This document shows positions 1,346-28,378 of a stretch of 55,191 nucleotides of DNA, piece after piece. How positions within the stretch are numbered: the first letter of the stretch is position 1; each line of letters starts with the position of its first letter. The stretch is taken from contig CALMSM010000149.1 of the NCBI GenBank assembly GCA_937872425.1, forward strand, positions 1 through 55,191, given 5' to 3'. The notes below the pieces were generated by a model. The model was not told the DNA's origin and ran no database searches. It worked only from the letters and a program-made list of their open reading frames with translations. The position numbers and the translations under genes are program-made. The stretch is from an uncultured Candidatus Saccharibacteria bacterium. GTDB lineage: Bacteria; Patescibacteriota; Saccharimonadia; Saccharimonadales; CALMSM01.

Positions 1346-2778
1346 TGAGCGACATCTTAGAGCGCCTGGTCAATGCGCTTGAAAAAATTGAGACCAAATC
1401 GCAATCGCCGCTGCACACCAAAGCGCCGGCGAGCGTCAATACCTCCACGCTGCTGAGTCAACCTGGCGGTATCTTCTCTGTGGTTGGCATGGAGCAGGAC
1501 ATTATCTCTGCTCATGTTCGGCCTACCGGTTTGGGTTCTACTTTGCCTGCTTTCCCTAGCAATTTGGACGATCCTCGCTACGGGTTTCTGAATGGCTTTA
1601 CTGCTACAGTTGGCAGTGAGCCTACGAATCCCTGTGACGATGCGCCCGCTGGCTTTATGAAGGGTGGCACACTTACCGCTGCCTTTGGCCGTATTGCCCG
1701 TGACACGCAGACCATCGAAATTGGGAAATTGCTACACCAAACTCGCGGTGCAACCACGAATCTCCGCTTGATTGGCGACATGCTGAATATGGGTGATTTT
1801 AACCCTGCGCAGATGAGCCAAAACGAAGTATTGAACATGGTTGTGCAGTCCGAAATGGTGGGCGTTGGTGTGCAGATGGAGCGCAAGCTGTCCACTATGC
1901 TTTGGCAAGGCGTCACCACGAACAATACTGCTGGTGGTGGCTACAAAGAGTTTCCTGGCCTCGATTATCAAATCGCTACTGGCCAGGTAGATGCCGAAAC
2001 CAACACGGCAATGTCGGCTGCTGACAGCTACGTGCTTGACTTCAACTACAATGATCTTGATGGCACTACGCTGGACATTGTTGAATACCTGTCTATGACA
2101 GAGTACCAACTCCGCAACAACGCTGTCCGTATGGGTCTTGACCCAGTGACGTTTGCCGTGGTGATGCGACCTGAGACATGGTTCGAGTTGTCCGCCGTTT
2201 GGCCATGCCGGTATCTTTCGTACCGCTGCGGCAACACGGGCGGCACCAACCCCACCGTGATCAACGATAACGTTAATGTGCAGTTGCGTGACGGTATGCG
2301 CAATGGCATGTATATCGACATCAACGGCAATCGTTACCCTGTGGTGGTTGATGACGGTATTTACGAAAATACCAACATCACAAGCGCCAATGTGCCCGCT
2401 GGCTACTACAGCAGCAACATCTATATGATTCCGCTGCGTGTTCGCGGTAATTTCCCTAGCCTTTACTGGGAGAATATCGATTACCGTGGAGCGCAACAGC
2501 AATTGAGCGCGCTAGGCGCTGGCAACCGTGTTGTGCCCTTCTGGACAACCAATGGGCGCTTTATGTGGGCGTACAAGACGGCGGGTTTCTGTTTTAATCT
2601 GCAGGCCATTGTAGAGCCGCGCATTGTATTGCGCACGCCTCAATTGGCTGGCAAGATTCAAAATGTCCGGTACAGCCCGTTGAGTCACTTGCGTTCGCCG
2701 TTCTCCGATAGTGTCTATTGGGCCGATGGCGGCGTTTCGGTTAGAAGCACCGGCACGTCTTATCACGTCTGGAGCTAG
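1345..2778 (+). CDS. Major capsid protein (positional call)
   Basis: 477-aa ORF immediately after the scaffold-like ORF, with size and position typical of an HK97-fold capsid gene. The antisense ORFs inside it look spurious. Confidence 0.55.
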   Translation: MSDILERLVNALEKIETKSQSPLHTKAPASVNTSTLLSQPGGIFSVVGMEQDIISAHVRPTGLGSTLPAFPSNLDDPRYGFLNGFTATVGSEPTNPCDDAPAGFMKGGTLTAAFGRIARDTQTIEIGKLLHQTRGATTNLRLIGDMLNMGDFNPAQMSQNEVLNMVVQSEMVGVGVQMERKLSTMLWQGVTTNNTAGGGYKEFPGLDYQIATGQVDAETNTAMSAADSYVLDFNYNDLDGTTLDIVEYLSMTEYQLRNNAVRMGLDPVTFAVVMRPETWFELSAVWPCRYLSYRCGNTGGTNPTVINDNVNVQLRDGMRNGMYIDINGNRYPVVVDDGIYENTNITSANVPAGYYSSNIYMIPLRVRGNFPSLYWENIDYRGAQQQLSALGAGNRVVPFWTTNGRFMWAYKTAGFCFNLQAIVEPRIVLRTPQLAGKIQNVRYSPLSHLRSPFSDSVYWADGGVSVRSTGTSYHVWS

Positions 2779-3782
2779 TTGTATATTCTTTGTCCATTAT
2801 GGTTTTTTGTTCTGACCATAGGGACGGGCCAAGATGCTATTACCTGGCGTTTTCTATCTAACCAGGTAATAGCATCTTGGTACATATATTCAATCACTTT
2901 CATCGCCACCTTTCGCCCACTGTACGCCAAATAATACACATCAGATTTTGAATGTCGATTGATTTTTCTATCTGGATTGCTATCAACACCGGCATCTATC
3001 AGGCGTTTACGGATTAATTCAATCAGTATTGAGTCTGCCAAAAAGTTAATACCGCTGTTTGGATTAGTGAAAGCACATCCGTCTCCATCGAATAGACCTC
3101 TAAGCCAATGGTGAAACAGGTGATCTGGTATTCGTTCTATTGTTTCGTTAGGCAAGTGGCGACCGACAGATACCCCGTAAAAGTGCAATCTTTCGATTAG
3201 GTGCCTGTCTGTAACATACAAGCCGGCGCTAGGGTATTTCTTCCCTTTGCATTGCTTTTCCCTCATTACTACCGGCGCATCTGTCCTCAAAAAAGATTTT
3301 AGTTTTTCGAGATGTGTAAAATCTACGCTTTTCAGTGAGACACTTAGGCTTTTGTCGTTTGTGCTGCCATCGGCATATAGAAACCCTAGCCAGTAGGCCG
3401 CACCTTCATTATCGATGGAATCAAAAACCGTATTGTTTAGTTTGTGAATTCTGTTTCTCTCTGGCGCCAGTCTTTGCTCCACGCCCTGCCGCTTAATTGC
3501 GTCAACAATCGATATATGGTGGCTCAATCCGTACAGTTTGGCGATATTCTTCGCACTTATACCGTACAGGTACAGTTTTGCTATTTTCGCCTCCTCTTCG
3601 TCGCTGAAATTACGACTGTATATTCCGGCGCTGCGCATTTGAACGTCGTGTAACTTCAATGTCCGGTTAATTGTGTCAGTGTGTACCCCTAACGCAACGC
3701 CGATTTTAACCGTACTTTCCCCCGCAACATATAATGCCACGGCTTCTAATTCTTGCTTGTCAGATAGTCTTTTCTTTCCCAT
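2775..3782 (-). CDS. LAGLIDADG homing endonuclease with N-terminal HTH repeats
   Basis: Two LAGLIDADG motifs (WLGFLYADGS and WLRGLFDGDGC). It lies opposite in strand to the flanking structural genes, and its stop overlaps the capsid gene stop. Confidence 0.85.
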   Translation of the reverse strand: MGKKRLSDKQELEAVALYVAGESTVKIGVALGVHTDTINRTLKLHDVQMRSAGIYSRNFSDEEEAKIAKLYLYGISAKNIAKLYGLSHHISIVDAIKRQGVEQRLAPERNRIHKLNNTVFDSIDNEGAAYWLGFLYADGSTNDKSLSVSLKSVDFTHLEKLKSFLRTDAPVVMREKQCKGKKYPSAGLYVTDRHLIERLHFYGVSVGRHLPNETIERIPDHLFHHWLRGLFDGDGCAFTNPNSGINFLADSILIELIRKRLIDAGVDSNPDRKINRHSKSDVYYLAYSGRKVAMKVIEYMYQDAITWLDRKRQVIASWPVPMVRTKNHNGQRIYN

Positions 3783-3801: not shown

Positions 3802-3863
3802 ATAGCCTTTTGTTGGTAGATTGCCGTTCTTGTCTAGGGAAGGCGTGACCAACAAAAGGCTAT
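3802..3863 (-). terminator. 16-bp-stem hairpin followed by a T-run on the minus strand, in the 5' leader of the endonuclease gene (attenuator-like)
   Basis: ATAGCCTTTTGTTGGT (3802-3817) pairs perfectly with ACCAACAAAAGGCTAT (3848-3863). Read on the minus strand it is followed by TTTTTATT and then a GGAG RBS. Confidence 0.45.
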
Positions 3864-3911
3864 AGAAATAATACCAGATAAAGGCAATGCTGCCAACCCT
3901 AGACAGTTGTA

Positions 3912-4002: not shown

Positions 4003-4164
4003 ATGAATGAGCAAGTGACGATCAAAGTGTGGGCAGAGACCCGAAAAATGTTGCGGCTGATTCATGCCATGACCGGCGAGAGCATGGTCACGATATTGCA
4101 TAGGTTGGTTGAAGAAGAATGGAAGAAAGTAAAGCAGGGTTCTATAAAAACAAGCGAGTTGTAG
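4003..4164 (+). CDS. Small ribbon-helix-helix (CopG/Arc-like) protein, 53 aa, not in ORF track
   Basis: Translates as MNEQVTIKVWAETRKMLRLIHAMTGESMVTILHRLVEEEWKKVKQGSIKTSEL, which has a beta-strand/helix/helix pattern typical of RHH proteins. It is the first ORF after the consensus promoter. Confidence 0.5.
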   Translation: MNEQVTIKVWAETRKMLRLIHAMTGESMVTILHRLVEEEWKKVKQGSIKTSEL

Positions 4165-5078
4165 TGACGGGTGGCGCCGGCTTCTTGGGTTCGCATTTGG
4201 TGCAGATGCTAGAGGCGGCGGGGGCTTGTGTATATGTGCCACGTAGTACCGATTACGATCTACGGGATAGAGCGGACGCGCAATTTATGCTTAAGTCTGT
4301 AGGTGGTTTTAAGTGGGACATAGTATTCCATTTGGCCGCCCGTGTATCCGGCATTGCTTCCACCTCTGCAACACCGGCTGACCACATTTACGACAATGCA
4401 ATGATGGCGCTTAATGTGATTCACGCTTGCGCCAAGAATAATATCAAGCTTGTTGTGGCCGGTAGTGTCTGTGCTTATCCTCAACACACGCCCATGCCGA
4501 TGATCGAGGAAAACTTGTGGAATGGCGCGCCTGAACCGACCAACGCATCATACGGGGAAGCGAAACGCCTGGCATTAGCCACACTACAAGCCTACCACCA
4601 GCAACACAATTTGAAATGTGCTTATCTTCTCTCTGCCAACCTCTACGGGCCAAACGACCATTTTGACCCGCAAACTTCCCACGTTATCCCGGCACTTATC
4701 CGTAAAATTGACCATGCACAGGGGGGGGGCGATATGGGCATCTGCGTGTGGGGTAGCGGTAGCGCAAGCCGGGATTTTCTCTATGTGGAGGATGCCGCAA
4801 GAGCCTACATGCTGGCCGGTGAGTTGATTGATTGCCCCACGCCGATCAACATCGGTAGCGGCACCGAAACGCACATAGCATGGTTGGTTGAGGAATTAAA
4901 GAACATCATGGGCTTTCATGGCGATACTGTGTTTGATAGGAGCAAGCCCGATGGTCAACCCCGGCGTTGCTTGCGCATCTGGAAAGCGCAGGATATGTTG
5001 GGCTGGAATCCGACAACGCCGATAGGTGAGGGTTTACGTAAGACGGTGGAATGGTACAGGGAGAATGTAAATGAGTGA
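4119..5078 (+). CDS. GDP-L-fucose synthase-like SDR (GDP-4-keto-6-deoxymannose 3,5-epimerase/4-reductase family; Fcl/ColC-like)
   Basis: VVVTGGAGFLGSHL Rossmann motif, a YGEAK (YxxxK) motif, and SANLYGPNDHFDPQTSHVIPALIRK, which closely resembles the Fcl signature. Confidence 0.8.
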   Translation: MEESKAGFYKNKRVVVTGGAGFLGSHLVQMLEAAGACVYVPRSTDYDLRDRADAQFMLKSVGGFKWDIVFHLAARVSGIASTSATPADHIYDNAMMALNVIHACAKNNIKLVVAGSVCAYPQHTPMPMIEENLWNGAPEPTNASYGEAKRLALATLQAYHQQHNLKCAYLLSANLYGPNDHFDPQTSHVIPALIRKIDHAQGGGDMGICVWGSGSASRDFLYVEDAARAYMLAGELIDCPTPINIGSGTETHIAWLVEELKNIMGFHGDTVFDRSKPDGQPRRCLRIWKAQDMLGWNPTTPIGEGLRKTVEWYRENVNE

Positions 5079-20761: not shown

Positions 20762-21126
20762 TGATCATAACCAAACTTGTGCAACAGCACAATGACATAT
20801 ATCTCGTGGAATGGATAGAGGACGGTGTTTCCCAACGGGCATTGGTGACACCTGACATGATTGTTGATATATCGGGACAATCCGCAATCGTGAACTATCC
20901 AGAGCGCGGGATACCGTTTGGTGAGGACTGGACAGCCTACATTAGCCAGGTGGTCACGCCATCTATGTTTAATGCCAGGCTCAAACAGTCCGGTATCTGG
21001 ACTATAGAAGATTTGCAGAGTAGACCTAACGAAGTGCATGGGGCATTGCTGGCCGCAACTGCTAGCATACTTCAGGAGCTACTTAGCAATGTGAAGTTAC
21101 AAAGGAGTTCTCAAAATGGCTCGTGA
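20761..21126 (+). CDS. Head-tail joining region protein (121 aa)
   Basis: Positional call only. Confidence 0.35.
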   Translation: MIITKLVQQHNDIYLVEWIEDGVSQRALVTPDMIVDISGQSAIVNYPERGIPFGEDWTAYISQVVTPSMFNARLKQSGIWTIEDLQSRPNEVHGALLAATASILQELLSNVKLQRSSQNGS

Positions 21127-22597
21127 AGCCTTTTCAACGAAAGACGGTGCTGCCTGGATTCAAACAGGCGGGCCAAACACTATCCCCTACTATCTGGGGT
21201 GTACAGACGTGGACAGCATCGACGAATCGGGCGGCTTAATTGACACGCTCTATCGATGTTTTACCACGGATGGCACCGGCTGGCGCACGGTAGGCGCATC
21301 GATTAGCCCGCCTGACCCAGTGAAGACGGCGCTTACTACGTACATCGGCGAGGTCGCCAGTTATCTGGAAACGATTAGCTGTCCAGTGACGCTGTTTTTC
21401 CACAGCCGGGACGCTGGCAAAGCGGATTTGTTCACTAACTATAAGCGCACTTATGTTCTAAATAACTGCCTTGTGGGTGACAAATCCTATGAAAATGTGG
21501 TAATGAAAGAGACCGACGATCTCGGTTCTCAGAAATTCAGCATTTCTGCCTTTCCGCCAGTTCACAAGATTTATCAGGTGACACCGGTTCGTCAGTCCAT
21601 CAGTAGCACAATTTCGCTAAACAATATTCAGTTTTGTAATAGCGTGCGTTGTGCCACTGACAGCGGTGCGGCGCAAGCTATCTGCACTACTGGCTATGCT
21701 ACCGGCAATGCGCCGACCGGCTCGCCTTCTACCACGACCGACGTGCTGTATACCAGTGACGCCGGTTCCACATGGACGGCTACCGCTACCGACCCATTCG
21801 CCGTAACCGAGGATATCCGAGGCATCACATGCTTCCCTATTTCTTCAACCGTCACCCGTGTCATTGTTTCTCGTGGCACAACTGACGCTGGTAATCCGGC
21901 TGAAGTCGCCTACAGTGACGACACCGGCACCACCTGGAATCTAGTCAACGTTGGCTCGACCAACGCACAGTATACGCAAAACAGCGAGGGTTTATTCTCT
22001 CTGGATCAGTATACCGTGTGGATGGTCACAAATGGCGGCTACATCTATTTCAGCAGTGACGGCGGCGTTACTTGGTCAACGCAGAGCGCAGGCGTGGCTA
22101 CAACCAACGCATTGCATTGCGTCCATGCGGCATCAAACCGTGTGGTGTGGGCGGCCGGTGCATCTGATACCATTCTACGCAGTTTGGACGGCGGCACAAC
22201 CTGGGCGACGGTAACGGCCAGCGGCGCAGGCTCTACCATCAATAGCATTTTCGCTTTGGATGCGCAGCGCGCTTGGGTTGGCACGGCCAACGGTCGATTG
22301 TATTACACGTTGGATGGCGGCACCACCTGGACAAGACGCCGTTACACCGACGATACAGCCGGTAGTACGCACGCCATTAAGTTTGTTAACAGCCTAATCG
22401 GTTGGATGATCCACGATACCGCTTCACCGGTGGGTAGCATTTTTCGCACCATTGATGGCGGCTATACCTGGGAGAAATACACCACACCGACCAACGCCGG
22501 ACTTAATGACATCAGTGTTTGTAACAATAACTTGGTATGGGCTTGCGGCAATGTCAGTGGAACGACTGGCGTTGTCATCAAGGCGACCAACATCTAA
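21116..22597 (+). CDS. Major-tail-position protein fused to a six-Asp-box (BNR) beta-propeller-like domain
   Basis: Six SxDxGxTW repeats: SDAGSTW, SDDTGTTW, SSDGGVTW, SLDGGTTW, TLDGGTTW, TIDGGYTW. It lies immediately upstream of the chaperone-position ORFs and the tape measure. Confidence 0.6.
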   Translation: MAREAFSTKDGAAWIQTGGPNTIPYYLGCTDVDSIDESGGLIDTLYRCFTTDGTGWRTVGASISPPDPVKTALTTYIGEVASYLETISCPVTLFFHSRDAGKADLFTNYKRTYVLNNCLVGDKSYENVVMKETDDLGSQKFSISAFPPVHKIYQVTPVRQSISSTISLNNIQFCNSVRCATDSGAAQAICTTGYATGNAPTGSPSTTTDVLYTSDAGSTWTATATDPFAVTEDIRGITCFPISSTVTRVIVSRGTTDAGNPAEVAYSDDTGTTWNLVNVGSTNAQYTQNSEGLFSLDQYTVWMVTNGGYIYFSSDGGVTWSTQSAGVATTNALHCVHAASNRVVWAAGASDTILRSLDGGTTWATVTASGAGSTINSIFALDAQRAWVGTANGRLYYTLDGGTTWTRRRYTDDTAGSTHAIKFVNSLIGWMIHDTASPVGSIFRTIDGGYTWEKYTTPTNAGLNDISVCNNNLVWACGNVSGTTGVVIKATNI

Positions 22598-22611
22598 TTT
22601 ACTTTGTGGCA

Positions 22612-22685
22612 AAACGGCTTCGTGTGATTGGGCTGCGTCCTCAGTTCAGCACGAAGCCGTTTCGCTAAATATGAACTGAGGACGC
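22612..22685 (+). promoter_or_regulatory. Interleaved 13-bp and 14-bp perfect helices; the second sequesters the RBS of the next gene
   Basis: 22612-22624 pairs with 22650-22662. 22635-22648 pairs with 22672-22685, which contains GAGGA 5 nt upstream of ATG 22687. Confidence 0.55.
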
Positions 22686-22686
22686 A

Positions 22687-23334
22687 ATGAGTAAAACGAT
22701 TGACCAGGCGGACATTTTTACCGCCGAAAATGGCACGGCGATTGAGCTTTTAGCTATTCGACCATTTGAAATGGCAATGGTCACTGAAGCGCTACGCAAG
22801 AAGTACCCCATCCCGGCTATTCCCACCTACGAAGTGGAGACCATCGGCGGCGGGAAAGAACTGCGAGAGCATGATGAAACCACCGCAACTGATGACGCCG
22901 ACAAAGCGCTGTGGAAACGCTATCTTGCCAACAAAGCTGAAGCCGAGGGCAAGATTAATCAAGAGATGAACGATTACATCTTGGCGGCTGGCACCCATAC
23001 ACAATTCACCGTTGACCTTGATGCGCCGTGGACAAAGATACAGCGCAAGTTTGGTGTCATTATCCCTGACGACCCCGAAGACTTACGGGTGCATTATCTC
23101 AAAACCCGTGTGCTGAACGTAGACGACATCAACGAATTGCTGACCCGTATCATGTCGAAAACGGGCATCAAGGCCGACATGGTGGAGACGGCGAAAGACT
23201 CCTTTCGCGGTACGGTACGGCGGCAGCGACGGGAAACCGGTAGACTCACTGTTGATTCGGCAGAAGGGGAAGTGGTGGACAGCGAGCAGATTCATGGAGT
23301 TGAAGACGGCGAAGGCGTGGGGCTTGACGCCTGA
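22687..23334 (+). CDS. Tail assembly chaperone (positional)
   Basis: 215-aa acidic ORF directly upstream of the tape measure. Confidence 0.5.
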   Translation: MSKTIDQADIFTAENGTAIELLAIRPFEMAMVTEALRKKYPIPAIPTYEVETIGGGKELREHDETTATDDADKALWKRYLANKAEAEGKINQEMNDYILAAGTHTQFTVDLDAPWTKIQRKFGVIIPDDPEDLRVHYLKTRVLNVDDINELLTRIMSKTGIKADMVETAKDSFRGTVRRQRRETGRLTVDSAEGEVVDSEQIHGVEDGEGVGLDA

Positions 23335-23473
23335 CCAGTGGGATAACGAGAGTGACGCCAGCAAAGCGCAGATGCTAGGCTATGAGGATGTATCCGCAAC
23401 AATGGCCGCATACGATGACCAGGTGCATGAGGACAAAATGGAATCTGAGCGCAGTAAAGGTAGAGGTCGGTAA
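23252..23473 (+). CDS. Overlapping ORF ending at the tape-measure start (chaperone extension or separate 59-aa gene from ATG 23294)
   Basis: It is in the +1 frame relative to 22687-23334 and overlaps it by 83 nt. Its stop abuts ATG 23474. Confidence 0.35.
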   Translation: MIRQKGKWWTASRFMELKTAKAWGLTPDQWDNESDASKAQMLGYEDVSATMAAYDDQVHEDKMESERSKGRGR

Positions 23474-26400
23474 ATGGCAAAGCAGATAGGACTACAAGCC
23501 ACACTTGATATAGATGCTTTTCTTCGTGGCGCTGGGCAGTATCAAAGCGCTATCGATGACATGAACGGCAAGACGGCTAGTTTTGCCGGTGCCGCTGTTG
23601 GTCACTTTCAAGACTTTGGCGGGGCGGCGCTCAGGGCGTCTGCTGTAGTTGCCACAGCTTCGGCTGCCGTGATTGCCGCTATCGGTGCTTGGGTCGGCAA
23701 AGGAATTTTAAATGCCGCTGATTTGGAGGAAAAGATCAGCGGCATTGTATCGATTTTGGATGGCGATACCGTCAAGGCATTTGGTGGTGCAGAGAAGGCG
23801 GCAGCAGCATTTGATTCAGAGATTACCGATTTGGGTTTAGACCCAAATCTAAAGGTGACGGCAACCGAAGCGGCTGACGCCATCAATCAGCTTGTTTCGG
23901 CGGGCGTCCCTGCGCAAGCCGTCCTTGATGGTGCTGCCCATTCCACGGTTTTACTCGCCAATGCTACCGGCGCAGACCTAACGATGGCCGCCAATATCGC
24001 CGCGCATTCAATGTCTATCTTTGGTATTAAAACTGGAGATTTAGAGGATGCCGTAAGTAATATTGCTGGTGTAGTAGGTAAATCCACTTTTACTATTAGT
24101 GATTACAGTATGGCGCTGGCCGCTGGCGGCGGCGTGGCCGCTTCTGTTGGTGTAAGTTTTGAGGATTTTAACGCTACCATCGCTGCTACATCGCCATTGT
24201 TTTCCAGTGGCAGTGATGCCGGTACGAGTTTCAAAACATTCCTACAACGTTTGACGCCACAAACAGACAAAGCAGCCACGGAAATGAAGAGGCTAGGGCT
24301 TAACTTCTATAACGCCGATGGCTCTATGAAGTCCATGACCGAGGTTTCTGGATTGCTTCAGAAGGCTTTTAGTGGATTAACCGAAGAACAAAAAAATCAG
24401 TCCGCCTCTATCATTTTTGGCACTGATGCCATGCGTACAGCGTTTGCGCTGGCAAGCACCGGTGCCGAAGAATTCGACAAACTGAAAAATTCCATTGATA
24501 GCGTAGATGCAAACCAACAGGCTATCATCCGTGTAACAAATCTCAAAGGCGCTTTCGAGATTCTACAGGGTCAAATTGATGCTGTTCAATCGGCCATTGG
24601 TAAGAAGTTTTTACCCGTGCTTAGAGAGTTGACACAATGGGCCAGCGAGTGGGTTTCGCAGTACGGGCATCAACTGATCGATTTCTTTGGTCAGGTCGCT
24701 ACCGCTGTTGATGCATTTAGAAATGCGCTGACTGCTGGTGTATCACCAATGAGCGCTTTTTTCATAGCCATGTCTGGGTTCGGCGAAACCGGCATATATG
24801 TGGCGACGATTATTCAAAACATCGTTGAAAAAACACAGTCGTTTGTCATGGCGGCAACAGCAATATTGTCTCCAATTATCAGCGCTATTGCCTCATTTGT
24901 ATCGTGGAAAGACGTACTCATTACGGTTGGCCTAGCCATTGCTTCCGTGGTTATCCCTGCAATTTATGGCTTTATTGCAGCACTACTGCCGGTGATAGCC
25001 ACGGTGGGCGCTGTATTGTTGGCCGTTGCCGCATTGCGCAATGCGTGGGAATCCAATTTCCTGGGCATCCAAACCGGCACAATTGCAGCCATCACCTATA
25101 TCACTGGCGCTCTTGCTCCATTTACATCCTCGGTTGCCGAGCATTTTGGCGGCGCATTAACTGAGATTAAAAATTTTGCGCTAGGCAATCAAACGGAATT
25201 TACCAACGTTGCGGCCATTTGGGAAGGCGCTAAAACTTCAGCCACTACACTATTTACCGATTTATCATCTTTGGTCACAACCTATCTGCCCGTCTGGACG
25301 GCCAAGCTCACAGAGTGGAGTGTAGCCGCTTCACAGTGGATTACAGATGCTATCCCGATTGTTACGCAAAAATTGACAGAGTGGTATACCGCACTAGCGA
25401 CCTACATTGTCACAAATTACCCGACCTGGTTGGCTGCTATGGCATTGTGGGGCAATGCGGTATGGCAATGGATAGTTGATGCCACGGCGTTAGTTGTCGC
25501 ACAATTGGGTGCATGGTACACCGAGTTATCCACATACGTCTCTGGTCAGCTACCCACATGGCAAGCGGAATTGGCATACTGGGCTACAGCTACCTGGCAA
25601 TGGATTGTCGATGCTACCGGGTTGATCGGGGCAAAGCTTGGCGAGTGGTACACCAGATTATCCAACTACATAGCAGGCCAGTTACCTACCTGGAAGGCAA
25701 GCTTCGTTAAATGGGCGGAAGCAACATGGCAATGGATTGTTGATGCTACAACTGAGGCCAAATCAAAAATCACGATATGGGCGATCAGTATCTTGTCGTA
25801 TATCGCAGAGAATTTACCGGACTTGCTGATTGCGATGATCAAGTGGGCTGAGGCTTTAGTATCATGGATTGTCAAGGCATCAGCCGACATTGTTCCAAAA
25901 CTCGGCTTGTACATAGGATATATCCTCGGATGGATATTAGGACAAACGCTAACAATTGCATCCTATTTGCTACTGTGGGCCTCGGCTTTCTTGAGTTGGA
26001 TAGCTGACGTGATTGTCAAGATTGCGCCGGAGTTAGGGAAACTAGGCGCTGCAATTATCGCTGGCATTATCAGCATAGGCGCTGACATATTAAAAGCCTT
26101 TGGTAACATGGCGCTTGGCTGGGCCTACGCTCTGGTAACAACCGTAAACTGGACACAGGTTGGCATGAATTTAGCATTGGCGCTATGGAATGGATTGCGA
26201 TATGTCATAGTATTTACAGCGGCTATATTTAAAACGGCAATCGATGGAATTTTAAGCCTACTTGGTATCGCAGGGAATGCGGCATCTACAGTATTTACCA
26301 CTGTAGGCAAAAGCATCCTTGATGGTGTTGTGGCCGGTATCGGCGCACTCGTTGAAGGGAAAAGCCCGGTAGTTGCGAAATTTGACGAAATCATTACAGC

Positions 26401-28378
26401 CGCCAAAAAAGTTTGGACTGATTCCGTTGCCTCATTCAAACAGCTTGGCACAGACATCATCGACGGCATTACCGCTGGCCTAGAAGCGGCTAAAGATGCG
26501 CTGAAGCAGAAAATGCTTGACATCGCAAACGCTCTGCCGAGTTGGGTAAAAAAGGCGCTTGGTATTGAATCGCCATCGAAAGTATTTATGGCAATAGGCC
26601 GCTACGTCATTCAAGGTTTCGTGGCTGGGCTCAAAGATGAATGGGCGATTCGTCAAGGCGAGTTTAAGGATTTGTTTTTATTCGCCATGCCAAAAGGTAA
26701 CATCGGTGGTAGTGGTTACTGGGATTTACCCACAGGACTCGCCAAAACAAAAGACGTAGCCAGCGGGCTGCTTAGTGTATTCAAAAAACTAGCTGACATG
26801 TCGCCTAGCGCGAATCATTCCGGCATGTCTGCGGCGGTGCAAAGTATCAATGACTCGCTTACTGTCCAGCTTGACCTGCTTGACCAAATCGAAAAAGCTG
26901 GCCTAGACCCGCGTGGCGTGTTGGGTGATACATGGATGGGTATCGGTGCCGACCCTGGCAAGCTGGCCGATTCCATTTTTGAGGTGACAAAACTTGCGCA
27001 GCAAAAGTTGAACAATGAAGTCATCAACCGGCGCAATTCGTTAATCAGTAAATTTGTATTGCAACCGTTCACAGATGCGCTGACCAACCAAGCGCAAGTT
27101 ATCGCTGACACGCTGAAAAATGTCGCTACCGATTTCGGTAAAATCCGCATCGATAGATTGTTGGCACAAATCGCAGACGTAGACAAACAGATTGCCACCT
27201 ACACGCAAATTAGTGACCGACAGGGCTTGACTTTTGATGAACAAAACCGCTTTAGAGATTTGGTCAATCAACGCGGCACTTTGGCTGCACAAATCGGAGC
27301 CACAAGCAATATTGAGGGATTTTTCAATATCTCCGATGAAGCCACCCGCCTCGACCAAATGAAAAAGCAGGTTGACCTGCTGAAACAAGCAAGAGACTTG
27401 TCGGCCGACATTCCCGCTGACGCCTTTGGTAATATTGCGAATGACAGCACGCTTCGGGCGCTGGTTGAAGTCTATGCTCATGTTCAGAATGCGCAGTTGA
27501 ATCAATTGCAATCGCAACTATCCACGCTGCAATCAAATAACATTCAGGCACAACTCAACCAGTACAAAGCGCAACAGGCATCACTGGACAGTCAAATTGC
27601 ATTGCTGCAAAAAGCCAGAGACCTGGGCTTGCAGTTATCTGGTGAGTCCACCTGGGGCGCAAATACGCCACAATCTGACATCAATAATCTGACCTTGCGC
27701 ATTGCGCAAGAGCAGCTACGGCGCACGCAAAACGAGCTAAAGTTAATCCAGGGCATCCCTGCCAACCTGCTAAATTTATCGCCTACTAACTCAGTAGCGC
27801 AATTGTACAAGACGCAGGTGCTTGACCCGATGCTGAAGACCTTGCGGGAAGCTGTGTTACTGGACAGCCAGCGCGCTGACCTAATGGCGAAATATGTGGC
27901 TGGTGCAGAGAAGGTGCAAACGCTGAATGACAAGCAAAGTCAACTGGATTATCTCAAATTTCAAACCGATCTGATCAAGCAGGTCAATGACACTTTTTCT
28001 GCGGCTGGTGCTCAAACCGTGCTGGCTGATACCCATTTTGGCCTTGATGCCTCACTAGATGACCTGTTAGCCTTTGCCACTCGCATGGTTAACGGCATGG
28101 TCGACAAGGTCAAAAACGGGTTAGGTATCGCATCGCCATCGAAAGTGTTTATCGACATCGGGCAGCGGGTAATGCAGGGCTTTAGTCGGGGCATGGAATC
28201 GATGGCCGACAAACCGATCATGGCAATTAACCAGGCATTGCGACCGTTGCCTTACGCCTATGCCGGTGGGCAGCGAACGATGAATGTCAACATGGGTGGC
28301 GTGTCAATCAGCAACGGTATGGACGATGTAATGTTTGAGCACAGAGTGCGCCAGGTGGTAGAGGGGATGATGGCCTAA
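23474..28378 (+). CDS. Tape measure protein
   Basis: 1634 aa, Ala/Gly-rich with TM-like central segments and a long coiled-coil C-terminal part. It carries two LGI(E/A)SPSKVF...QGF motifs and follows the chaperone ORFs. Confidence 0.9.
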   Translation: MAKQIGLQATLDIDAFLRGAGQYQSAIDDMNGKTASFAGAAVGHFQDFGGAALRASAVVATASAAVIAAIGAWVGKGILNAADLEEKISGIVSILDGDTVKAFGGAEKAAAAFDSEITDLGLDPNLKVTATEAADAINQLVSAGVPAQAVLDGAAHSTVLLANATGADLTMAANIAAHSMSIFGIKTGDLEDAVSNIAGVVGKSTFTISDYSMALAAGGGVAASVGVSFEDFNATIAATSPLFSSGSDAGTSFKTFLQRLTPQTDKAATEMKRLGLNFYNADGSMKSMTEVSGLLQKAFSGLTEEQKNQSASIIFGTDAMRTAFALASTGAEEFDKLKNSIDSVDANQQAIIRVTNLKGAFEILQGQIDAVQSAIGKKFLPVLRELTQWASEWVSQYGHQLIDFFGQVATAVDAFRNALTAGVSPMSAFFIAMSGFGETGIYVATIIQNIVEKTQSFVMAATAILSPIISAIASFVSWKDVLITVGLAIASVVIPAIYGFIAALLPVIATVGAVLLAVAALRNAWESNFLGIQTGTIAAITYITGALAPFTSSVAEHFGGALTEIKNFALGNQTEFTNVAAIWEGAKTSATTLFTDLSSLVTTYLPVWTAKLTEWSVAASQWITDAIPIVTQKLTEWYTALATYIVTNYPTWLAAMALWGNAVWQWIVDATALVVAQLGAWYTELSTYVSGQLPTWQAELAYWATATWQWIVDATGLIGAKLGEWYTRLSNYIAGQLPTWKASFVKWAEATWQWIVDATTEAKSKITIWAISILSYIAENLPDLLIAMIKWAEALVSWIVKASADIVPKLGLYIGYILGWILGQTLTIASYLLLWASAFLSWIADVIVKIAPELGKLGAAIIAGIISIGADILKAFGNMALGWAYALVTTVNWTQVGMNLALALWNGLRYVIVFTAAIFKTAIDGILSLLGIAGNAASTVFTTVGKSILDGVVAGIGALVEGKSPVVAKFDEIITAAKKVWTDSVASFKQLGTDIIDGITAGLEAAKDALKQKMLDIANALPSWVKKALGIESPSKVFMAIGRYVIQGFVAGLKDEWAIRQGEFKDLFLFAMPKGNIGGSGYWDLPTGLAKTKDVASGLLSVFKKLADMSPSANHSGMSAAVQSINDSLTVQLDLLDQIEKAGLDPRGVLGDTWMGIGADPGKLADSIFEVTKLAQQKLNNEVINRRNSLISKFVLQPFTDALTNQAQVIADTLKNVATDFGKIRIDRLLAQIADVDKQIATYTQISDRQGLTFDEQNRFRDLVNQRGTLAAQIGATSNIEGFFNISDEATRLDQMKKQVDLLKQARDLSADIPADAFGNIANDSTLRALVEVYAHVQNAQLNQLQSQLSTLQSNNIQAQLNQYKAQQASLDSQIALLQKARDLGLQLSGESTWGANTPQSDINNLTLRIAQEQLRRTQNELKLIQGIPANLLNLSPTNSVAQLYKTQVLDPMLKTLREAVLLDSQRADLMAKYVAGAEKVQTLNDKQSQLDYLKFQTDLIKQVNDTFSAAGAQTVLADTHFGLDASLDDLLAFATRMVNGMVDKVKNGLGIASPSKVFIDIGQRVMQGFSRGMESMADKPIMAINQALRPLPYAYAGGQRTMNVNMGGVSISNGMDDVMFEHRVRQVVEGMMA
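25310..25885 (+). repeat. Trp-rich tandem repeats (about 38 aa, about five copies) within the tape measure
   Basis: Recurrent units of the form TWQWIVDAT...LGEWYT.LS.Y..GQLPTW. Confidence 0.6.

Follow-up and report, generated by a model that had tools for sequence, protein, structure and literature searches.

A tailed phage has to produce tube subunits in the hundreds against only a few assembly factors, with a single polycistronic message as the source of both, and how such ratios are set is largely unstudied beyond a few model phages. The question is raised here by the 89-nt intergenic gap that runs from the stop codon of a gene in tail-tube position to the ATG at 22687 of contig CALMSM010000149.1 (assembly GCA_937872425.1), a stretch of 55,191 nt that was analysed as a whole and is called the window below. 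The gap holds two interleaved inverted repeats, helices A and B, the second of which can hide the ribosome-binding site (RBS) of the downstream gene. We propose, with a probability of roughly 0.72, that this element is a cis-acting regulator of the late (tail) mRNA that limits, and possibly switches, initiation of the gene after the tube gene, as suggested by comparison of related loci and by predicted folding. The parts of the element are as follows.

22598-22611, + strand: AU-rich spacer from the stop codon to hairpin A, read directly from the sequence.
22612-22625, + strand: 5' arm of helix A, AAACGGCTTCGTG (22612-22624), with 13 Watson-Crick pairs and a T22625-G22649 wobble.
22629-22635, + strand: 5' strand of the inner stem, UGGGCUG, which pairs with 22642-22648 when hairpin A is formed (minimum free energy (MFE) fold of the isolated hairpin).
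22634-22648, + strand: 5' arm of helix B, TGCGTCCTCAGTTCA, the strand complementary to the Shine-Dalgarno (SD) sequence (anti-SD strand).
22649-22662, + strand: 3' arm of helix A, CACGAAGCCGTTT (22650-22662), the exact reverse complement of AAACGGCTTCGTG.
22663-22671, + strand: linker from A3' to B3', CGCUAAAUA, 9 nt.
22672-22686, + strand: 3' arm of helix B, TGAACTGAGGACGCA, the exact reverse complement of TGCGTCCTCAGTTCA, which holds the SD and ends at position -1.

A preliminary description of this region had reported perfect interleaved helices in the order A5', B5', A3', B3' with 1 nt between B5' and A3', and the sequence agrees with this order, G22649 alone separating the two inner arms. 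The 13 bp of helix A given there were also recovered, whereas helix B consists of 15 perfect Watson-Crick bp rather than 14 (one more at the end of each arm), and the spacer between the SD (GAGGA, 22678-22682) and ATG 22687 measures 4 nt rather than 5. The claim that helix B pairs with the GAGGA sequence is borne out, as the helix covers the SD and all bases to position -1. In its extended form, hairpin A of the window comprises 14 bp, a 3-nt internal loop, a 7-bp inner stem (22629-22635/22642-22648) and an apical hexaloop, CGUCCU (22636-22641), that is the exact complement of AGGACG (22679-22684); positions 22608-22610 can add three outer pairs with 22664-22666 in the centroid fold and in prefix folds. 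The inner strand UGGGCUG mimics the 5' part of B3' (UGAACUG) and is invariant in the five closest relatives, so that covariation gives no evidence for the inner stem. The stop codon is separated by 14 nt from the core of hairpin A and, counted from its last base, by 36 nt from B5', which lies wholly outside the upstream open reading frame (ORF). A rough distance estimate indicates that B3' can reach the loop across the 9-nt linker.

The best interleaved stem pair gave z = 12.0, and none of 200 dinucleotide shuffles reached its score. As a control for RBS masking, 65 of the window's gene starts were each searched for Watson-Crick complements to positions -18 to -1 within the upstream 120 nt; the longest one measured 15 bp at 22687, against 9 bp for the runner-up and a mode of 4-5 bp.

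Relatives were found by protein searches, and their contigs were retrieved for intergenic comparison. Both helices are kept, with changed arm sequences, at 95%, 88%, 84%, 73% and 72% protein identity. The arms of three relatives are given here.

L003: helix A, AAATGGTCTCGTG / CACGAGACCATTT; helix B, same as in the window.
L206: helix A, TTAGTGGCTGGTGTG / CACACCAGCCATTAA; helix B, GTGTCCTCGGTTA / TAACCGAGGACAC.
L006: helix A, ACAATCT(T)GGCGTG / CACGCCAGATTGT; helix B, TGTGTCCTCAGCA / TGCTGAGGACACA.

Since the arms of divergent members end up in the wrong place when MAFFT aligns the entire intergenic region, pairs were counted with anchored arms in seven distinct near-clade sequences. There, 99.4% of cells were paired, and 13 pairs were altered on both sides, a number attained by none of 500 shuffles; when the partner was slid by 1-3 columns, pairing went down to 35-49%. 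Compensatory changes were found at 11 of the 13 pairs of helix A and at 2 of the 11 pairs of the helix B core, in which 8 pairs were invariant because the core is the SD itself. Across the helices of all loci, interior positions that departed from Watson-Crick pairing were G·U in 36 cases versus A·C in 11 (p = 3e-4), indicating that the folding molecule is sense-strand RNA. On this comparative evidence, helices A and B are selected structures in the sense-strand mRNA.

The tube-protein family numbers more than 900 members, and an alignment of homologues led to 76 IMG/VR loci with 24-45% identity. Their distant intergenic sequences cannot be aligned with that of the window, yet most share its layout, namely a long hairpin after the tube-gene stop with a loop word complementary to the downstream SD. 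Recurrence was tested on a non-redundant set of 51 intergenic regions (55-175 nt). In 39 of the 51 loci, the last 18 nt ahead of the start codon could form 6 or more Watson-Crick bp with the loop of the strongest hairpin, and this complementarity was individually significant in 34 of the 51 (500 loop shuffles each), with a combined p of 5e-35. When hairpin A was folded alone, the anti-SD core was unpaired within the apical loop in 30 of the 39. Tube genes of the same loci use a canonical SD such as AAGGAGGT, while the downstream SD (SD2) is flanked by atypical letters (GGGAGCAA, GGAGAGT, GAGCGAG, GGATGCG) matched to the loop of its own locus. Mean loop complementarity was 6.4 bp to the own SD2, versus 4.4 bp to the ribosome-binding region of the tube gene (p = 4e-6) and 4.7 bp to the SD2 of other loci (p = 6e-7). 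As judged from these comparisons, the loop and SD words co-evolve.

In a tree of 66 tube proteins, the device was found across the whole main clade (56 rows) and was missing from the divergent outgroup, and device labels clustered on the tree, which points to an old, vertically inherited element with several losses. The device-less relatives L027, L057 and L024 have a closely packed arrangement of stop, SD and ATG. At one locus, L034 (IMG/VR 3300028840_002412), the usual downstream gene is preceded by an inserted one (~130 aa, HExxH motif), and the device stands before this insert, indicating that the device stays with the tube-gene junction and not with the downstream gene.

Folding energies were computed for nested folds, with pseudoknots unscored. 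The best folds of the window were almost equal (-37.3 kcal/mol with A vs. -37.0 kcal/mol with B). In folds predicted for growing transcripts, A forms first, with B as an iso-energetic alternative: hairpin A was the MFE structure in every transcript prefix from 22658 to 22700, and helix B became so only once sequence past 22706 was included. The nested refolding barrier was ~38 kcal/mol, an upper bound that ignores pseudoknotted intermediates. The predicted balance did not move from 10 to 45 °C, and the two states were within ~5 kcal/mol of each other in all seven near relatives.

The A and B arms follow the order of an H-type pseudoknot and have no nucleotide in common. The window stems, of 14 and 15 bp, each exceed one helical turn, so that full-length A and B together would be a true knot by established pseudoknot geometry; full helix B and hairpin A are thus alternatives. 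The earlier view that the helices are mutually exclusive rather than a simple pseudoknot therefore applies only to the full 15-bp helix B. By rough geometry, a partial helix B of 6-10 bp could coexist with hairpin A in the window, and most loci would leave steric room for a loop-to-SD pseudoknot of 6-9 bp on the intact hairpin. The distance estimate places the loop of an unopened hairpin within reach of SD2 in 28 of 39 loci, one of them the window.

In the mechanism that we propose, hairpin A would fold directly after the tube-gene stop and display the anti-SD hexaloop, and the loop would pair with the SD in cis as a pseudoknot, competing against 16S rRNA for the RBS. In the window clade, the complementarity would have grown to 15 bp, so that full helix B, with the RBS closed and A open, becomes an iso-energetic alternative to hairpin A, with the RBS free. 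Transcription would yield hairpin A first, and the net effect would be to hold translation of the gene in chaperone position at a fixed proportion of that of the tube protein, which is very abundant. The predicted balance between open and closed states in the window clade is best read as the signature of a switch. We infer that pairing lowers 30S binding in vivo, and any statement on which state dominates, and on what signal, if any, shifts the balance, is of the same kind. The preliminary description had spoken of a translational switch or coupling device that sets the ratio of tube protein to chaperone; a role in relative downstream translation stands as the best explanation, while coupling of the classical positive type does not fit a B5' arm that lies 36 nt past the stop.

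Several points weigh against a translational regulator of this kind. Few positions carry direct near-clade covariation for helix B, so that the argument for B is carried by the family-wide co-variation of loop and SD. The arms for the pair count were picked by complementarity, which inflates the percentage paired, and the combined p-values overstate independence, as the loci share descent. Most distant relatives favour A by a median of 12 kcal/mol over nested B folds, so that the SD would be masked there only as a loop-to-SD pseudoknot with the hairpin intact, and in 11 of 39 loci SD2 is estimated, roughly, to be unable to reach the loop in that form. Furthermore, a weak SD alone could lower translation, which leaves the reason for so elaborate a device unexplained.

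Additional information on the input may come from a further SD-like word, SD1, which lies between the stop codon and the hairpin in 16 loci and pairs with the same loop word as SD2. SD1, loop and SD2 co-vary three ways, non-SD letters included (in L050, GGATGCG, CGCATCC and GGATGCG). SD1 starts a median of 6 nt past the stop, at most 10 nt in 10 of the 16 loci, and it takes a relative position of 0.23 in the space open to it (p = 6e-4); it is estimated to be able to reach the loop in 15 of 15 loci. In loci lacking SD1, hairpin A starts just 9-17 nt past the stop codon. The window belongs to a clade of 12 rows (support 100/100), all members of which carry the device and lack this decoy, and the counterpart of SD1 in this clade may be the inner-stem strand UGGGCUG.

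These observations have been weighed as a case of inverse translational coupling, in which the system is kept open by the part closest to the stop, SD1 in many relatives and the base of hairpin A in the window clade. A ribosome that terminates on the tube gene would cover this part and thereby free the anti-SD loop to close the downstream RBS, so that downstream initiation falls as tube translation rises. Such coupling would plausibly refine the proposed regulation by naming its input signal, and it is in line with the position, reach and three-way co-variation of SD1, with the closeness of hairpin A to the stop where SD1 is lacking, and with a published screen in which structure just past the upstream stop lowers coupling (reviewed in PMC12548453). 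We regard it as possible though doubtful, given that SD1 may be a relic of an ancestral stop-SD-ATG arrangement such as that of the device-less relatives, that 6 of the 16 SD1 copies lie 11-25 nt from the stop, outside the footprint of the terminating ribosome, and that the window has no SD1 and a hairpin A core probably beyond the unwinding reach of the ribosome. The more specific form of this idea, a three-part sensor of ribosome flux, is rather doubtful as well: the SD-like decoy or the hairpin base, inside the footprint of the terminating ribosome, would normally occupy or cage the anti-SD loop, and each termination at the tube gene would uncover the loop, which would then close the RBS of the next gene. 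We know of no described example of negative coupling via a decoy SD beside a stop codon. A different timing is implied by delayed folding of the type known for the MS2 maturation gene, in which A would trap the anti-SD strand while the nascent mRNA loads ribosomes, and B would later silence older transcripts. The SD does have an upstream complement, of 15 bp in the window and of 6 bp or more in 39 of the 51 loci, and an earlier hairpin is predicted to hold it, with 7 of the 15 nt of B5' paired in the inner stem; the late appearance of B in the prefix folds, the high nested barrier, an inner strand that mimics B3' and could be displaced from a hexaloop acting as toehold, and the MS2 precedent (PMC4615214) all agree with such a kinetic window. 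Yet B is no more stable than A in the window and is much weaker in most relatives, so that no family-wide thermodynamic drive to a closed end state exists, and exchange could be fast via pseudoknotted intermediates; delayed silencing is thus unlikely.

It is quite unlikely that hairpin A is mainly an mRNA stabiliser, a processing barrier or a partial terminator that boosts the tube message, with the loop/SD match being secondary. A stable hairpin of 13-22 bp does stand directly after a very highly expressed structural gene in most relatives, U-runs follow A3' in a few loci (L217, L042, L016 and L018), and the AU-rich spacer is typical of RNase E sites. However, the window has no terminator consensus, most loci have 0-3 T in the 8 nt past A3', and the locus-specific co-variation of loop, SD2 and SD1, as well as the 15-bp helix B, would be left unexplained. 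Coupling by RNA unfolding, in which ribosomes of the tube gene melt a structure that hides the downstream RBS, accounts for a masked RBS, as in many coupled pairs (PMC12548453), but the masking strand lies outside both the upstream ORF and the ribosome footprint, and opening of the nearer hairpin A would favour helix B; we consider it very improbable. Hardly any more credit can be given to a feature of the DNA or of the opposite strand (a protein-binding inverted repeat, a cruciform or an antisense RNA) or to an operator hairpin for a phage protein. The reverse strand does fold well (-40.2 kcal/mol, z = -4.1), as that of any inverted repeat must, and phages commonly have autogenous protein repressors that bind hairpins. 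Nevertheless, the excess of G·U over A·C fits sense-strand RNA only, the arms turn over completely with pairing kept, unlike a sequence-specific protein site, and the loop co-varies with the SD.

Some further candidates were tried and rejected. An intrinsic terminator was not supported, since a consensus scan of 22300-22900 was empty and just UUU follows A3' in the window; no promoter consensus was found either. A readthrough or frameshift stimulator does not fit, as the frames beyond the stop are soon closed (TGA 22622-22624 ends that of the tube gene) and the downstream gene is read in a different one. A leader peptide would start at TTG 22604, which opens seven codons without an SD (TTG-TAG in L002). 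An RNA thermometer was dismissed on the steady A/B balance, and a recent insertion resembling a miniature inverted-repeat transposable element with target-site duplication on the vertical inheritance along the tube tree and the co-variation of the loop with flanking words.

Two relatives deserve separate mention. In L029 (IMG/VR 3300037518_000230), the only locus where the tube and downstream genes share one frame, only TAA lies between the two, and an in-frame ATG follows SD1; on sequence grounds, an N-terminally extended product or a readthrough fusion is formally possible there. In L217, 2622-2712 (72% identical), a perfect 16-bp helix A is followed by UUUUGUUUUG, which resembles an intrinsic terminator with the anti-SD word UGAUCCC in its loop.

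The window contig is a complete 55-kb tailed-phage contig, binned in a 1.59-Mb metagenome-assembled genome. The genes on either side of the element are the following.

21116-22597, + strand: upstream gene, 493 aa, in tail-tube position, stop TAA 22595-22597 (ORF list, Pfam and PDB profiles).
22687-23334, + strand: downstream gene, 215 aa, in tail-assembly-chaperone position between the tube and tape-measure genes.

The 493-aa protein has a C-terminal Ycf48-like BNR beta-propeller (Pfam matches PSII_BNR, Sortilin-Vps10 and BNR), with residues ~200-490 matching Ycf48 in a PDB profile search; its first ~200 residues had no match by sequence. Its gene sits two genes ahead of the tape-measure gene (23474-28378), the relatives of which carry PF10145. 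The 215-aa protein had no Pfam and no PHROG match, and Pfam and PHROGs searches with the small neighbouring proteins were without match as well. Its predicted fold (AlphaFold2, predicted local distance difference test score 74.8) had no PDB match (best E = 0.07, TM-score 0.13), and searches of viral and genome contigs found no relatives; the family may have an undescribed fold for a protein in chaperone position. A motif, ~P-T-Y-x5-GG-x6-H-D-E-T-T, is common to the window and L015, L029, L053 and L059, very distant loci included. ORF 23252-23473, in the +1 frame, overlaps the end of the 215-aa gene and stops exactly at the tape-measure ATG 23474. The 215-aa gene thus has the location and the overlapping extension ORF of a chaperone of the lambda gpG/gpGT type, with a putative frameshift into the +1 frame, and its protein has no likeness to such chaperones in sequence or fold. 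Note that the extension ORF is in the expected place, yet its frame is not the usual -1. The preliminary description had called this gene a chaperone; the position agrees, no family or fold match does, and the name is a label from position only, resting on location and the overlapping +1-frame ORF.

BLAST of 21100-23500 against GenBank phages gave no match. Metagenome contigs were also scanned for the pattern GTCCTCAG…CTGAGGAC; the 120 hits were chance palindromes, and no relative is encoded by any of them. At gathering thresholds, Rfam found only two tRNA genes in the whole window (RF00005; 47167-47236 and 50458-50529; 48.9 and 55.8 bits), and a permissive scan of 22540-22740 gave miRNA- and hammerhead-type matches of 12-20 bits against thresholds of 37-91 bits. 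A search of the published literature found no description of the device. Elsewhere in the window, a second interleaved inverted-repeat pair occurs at 3802-3905 (3802-3817/3848-3863, 16 bp, perfect; 3831-3844/3892-3905, 14 nt, 86% complementary), in a divergent intergenic region between a - strand gene (2775-3782) and a + strand gene (4119-5078); these repeats are more likely operators or promoters than an RBS mask.

The element represents a structured RNA motif conserved over deep divergence, with protein identities as low as ~25-45%, in a large family of uncultured siphophages. Its parts (hairpin, anti-SD loop, SD and optional decoy) can be tested, and it is a candidate entry for RNA family databases, as well as a natural example of a bistable or pseudoknotted RBS mask between cistrons and a compact natural part with which to tune expression ratios in synthetic operons. 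If the decoy hypothesis is true, negative coupling joins the repertoire of translational coupling; if ribosome flux is indeed sensed, the assembly factor would be fixed at a low fraction of tube synthesis whatever the mRNA level.

Among known systems, the leader of the maturation gene of MS2 (Levivirus) has an upstream complement that pairs with the SD and a metastable hairpin that delays this pairing (Groeneveld 1995; van Meerten 2001; PMC4615214). As in that leader, an upstream word here pairs with the SD of a low-copy gene of structural assembly, an earlier hairpin holds the complement with the SD free on the nascent RNA, and covariation among phages shows that the structure is kept, with a low ratio to a major structural protein as the purpose. 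The present element differs in being intercistronic, in the tail operon of a double-stranded DNA phage, and in a hairpin and SD helix that share no nucleotides, so that their exclusion is topological or steric; in addition, its closed state is not dominant, being iso-energetic in the window and weaker in most relatives, and many relatives add an SD-like decoy. Coupling by RNA unfolding is known for f1 genes VII/IX, MS2 coat/lysis and rpmI-rplT (PMC12548453). The hidden downstream RBS in a polycistronic structure is shared with these pairs; in contrast, the masking strand here lies outside the upstream ORF and the reach of the terminating ribosome, and the predicted sign of any coupling is negative.

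H-type pseudoknots that sequester an SD occur in the expression platforms of preQ1-II and SAM-II riboswitches and in the E. coli rpsO (S15) operator, and as in these the loop pairs with a downstream SD strand in the same arm order. However, the present element has no evident ligand pocket or protein partner, its stems are much longer (13-22 and 6-15 bp), it lies between cistrons, and no Rfam match links it to them. In lambda cIII mRNA (Rfam Lambda_thermo), alternative folds occlude or expose the RBS. Both are phage mRNAs with two near-iso-energetic folds that hide or expose an RBS, but the two folds of cIII have sequence in common and are sensitive to temperature and to RNase III, whereas the predicted balance here is steady from 10 to 45 °C, again with no Rfam match. 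The repY/repZ leader of IncI-alpha/IncB plasmids has a hairpin-loop pseudoknot beside the repZ RBS that is controlled by termination of a leader ORF. There, too, a loop pairs over a long range near a downstream RBS and nearby upstream termination influences the fold; the repZ pseudoknot, however, activates and is the target of an antisense RNA, whereas the loop here pairs with the SD itself and should repress, and no antisense RNA is known. Masked SDs, bistable leaders and pseudoknots that involve an SD are already well known, and what sets this element apart is its fixed site between the tube gene and the next tail gene, an anti-SD word displayed by a hairpin with no nucleotides shared by the two helices, the iso-energetic long form of the window clade, and the decoy that many relatives have next to the stop codon.

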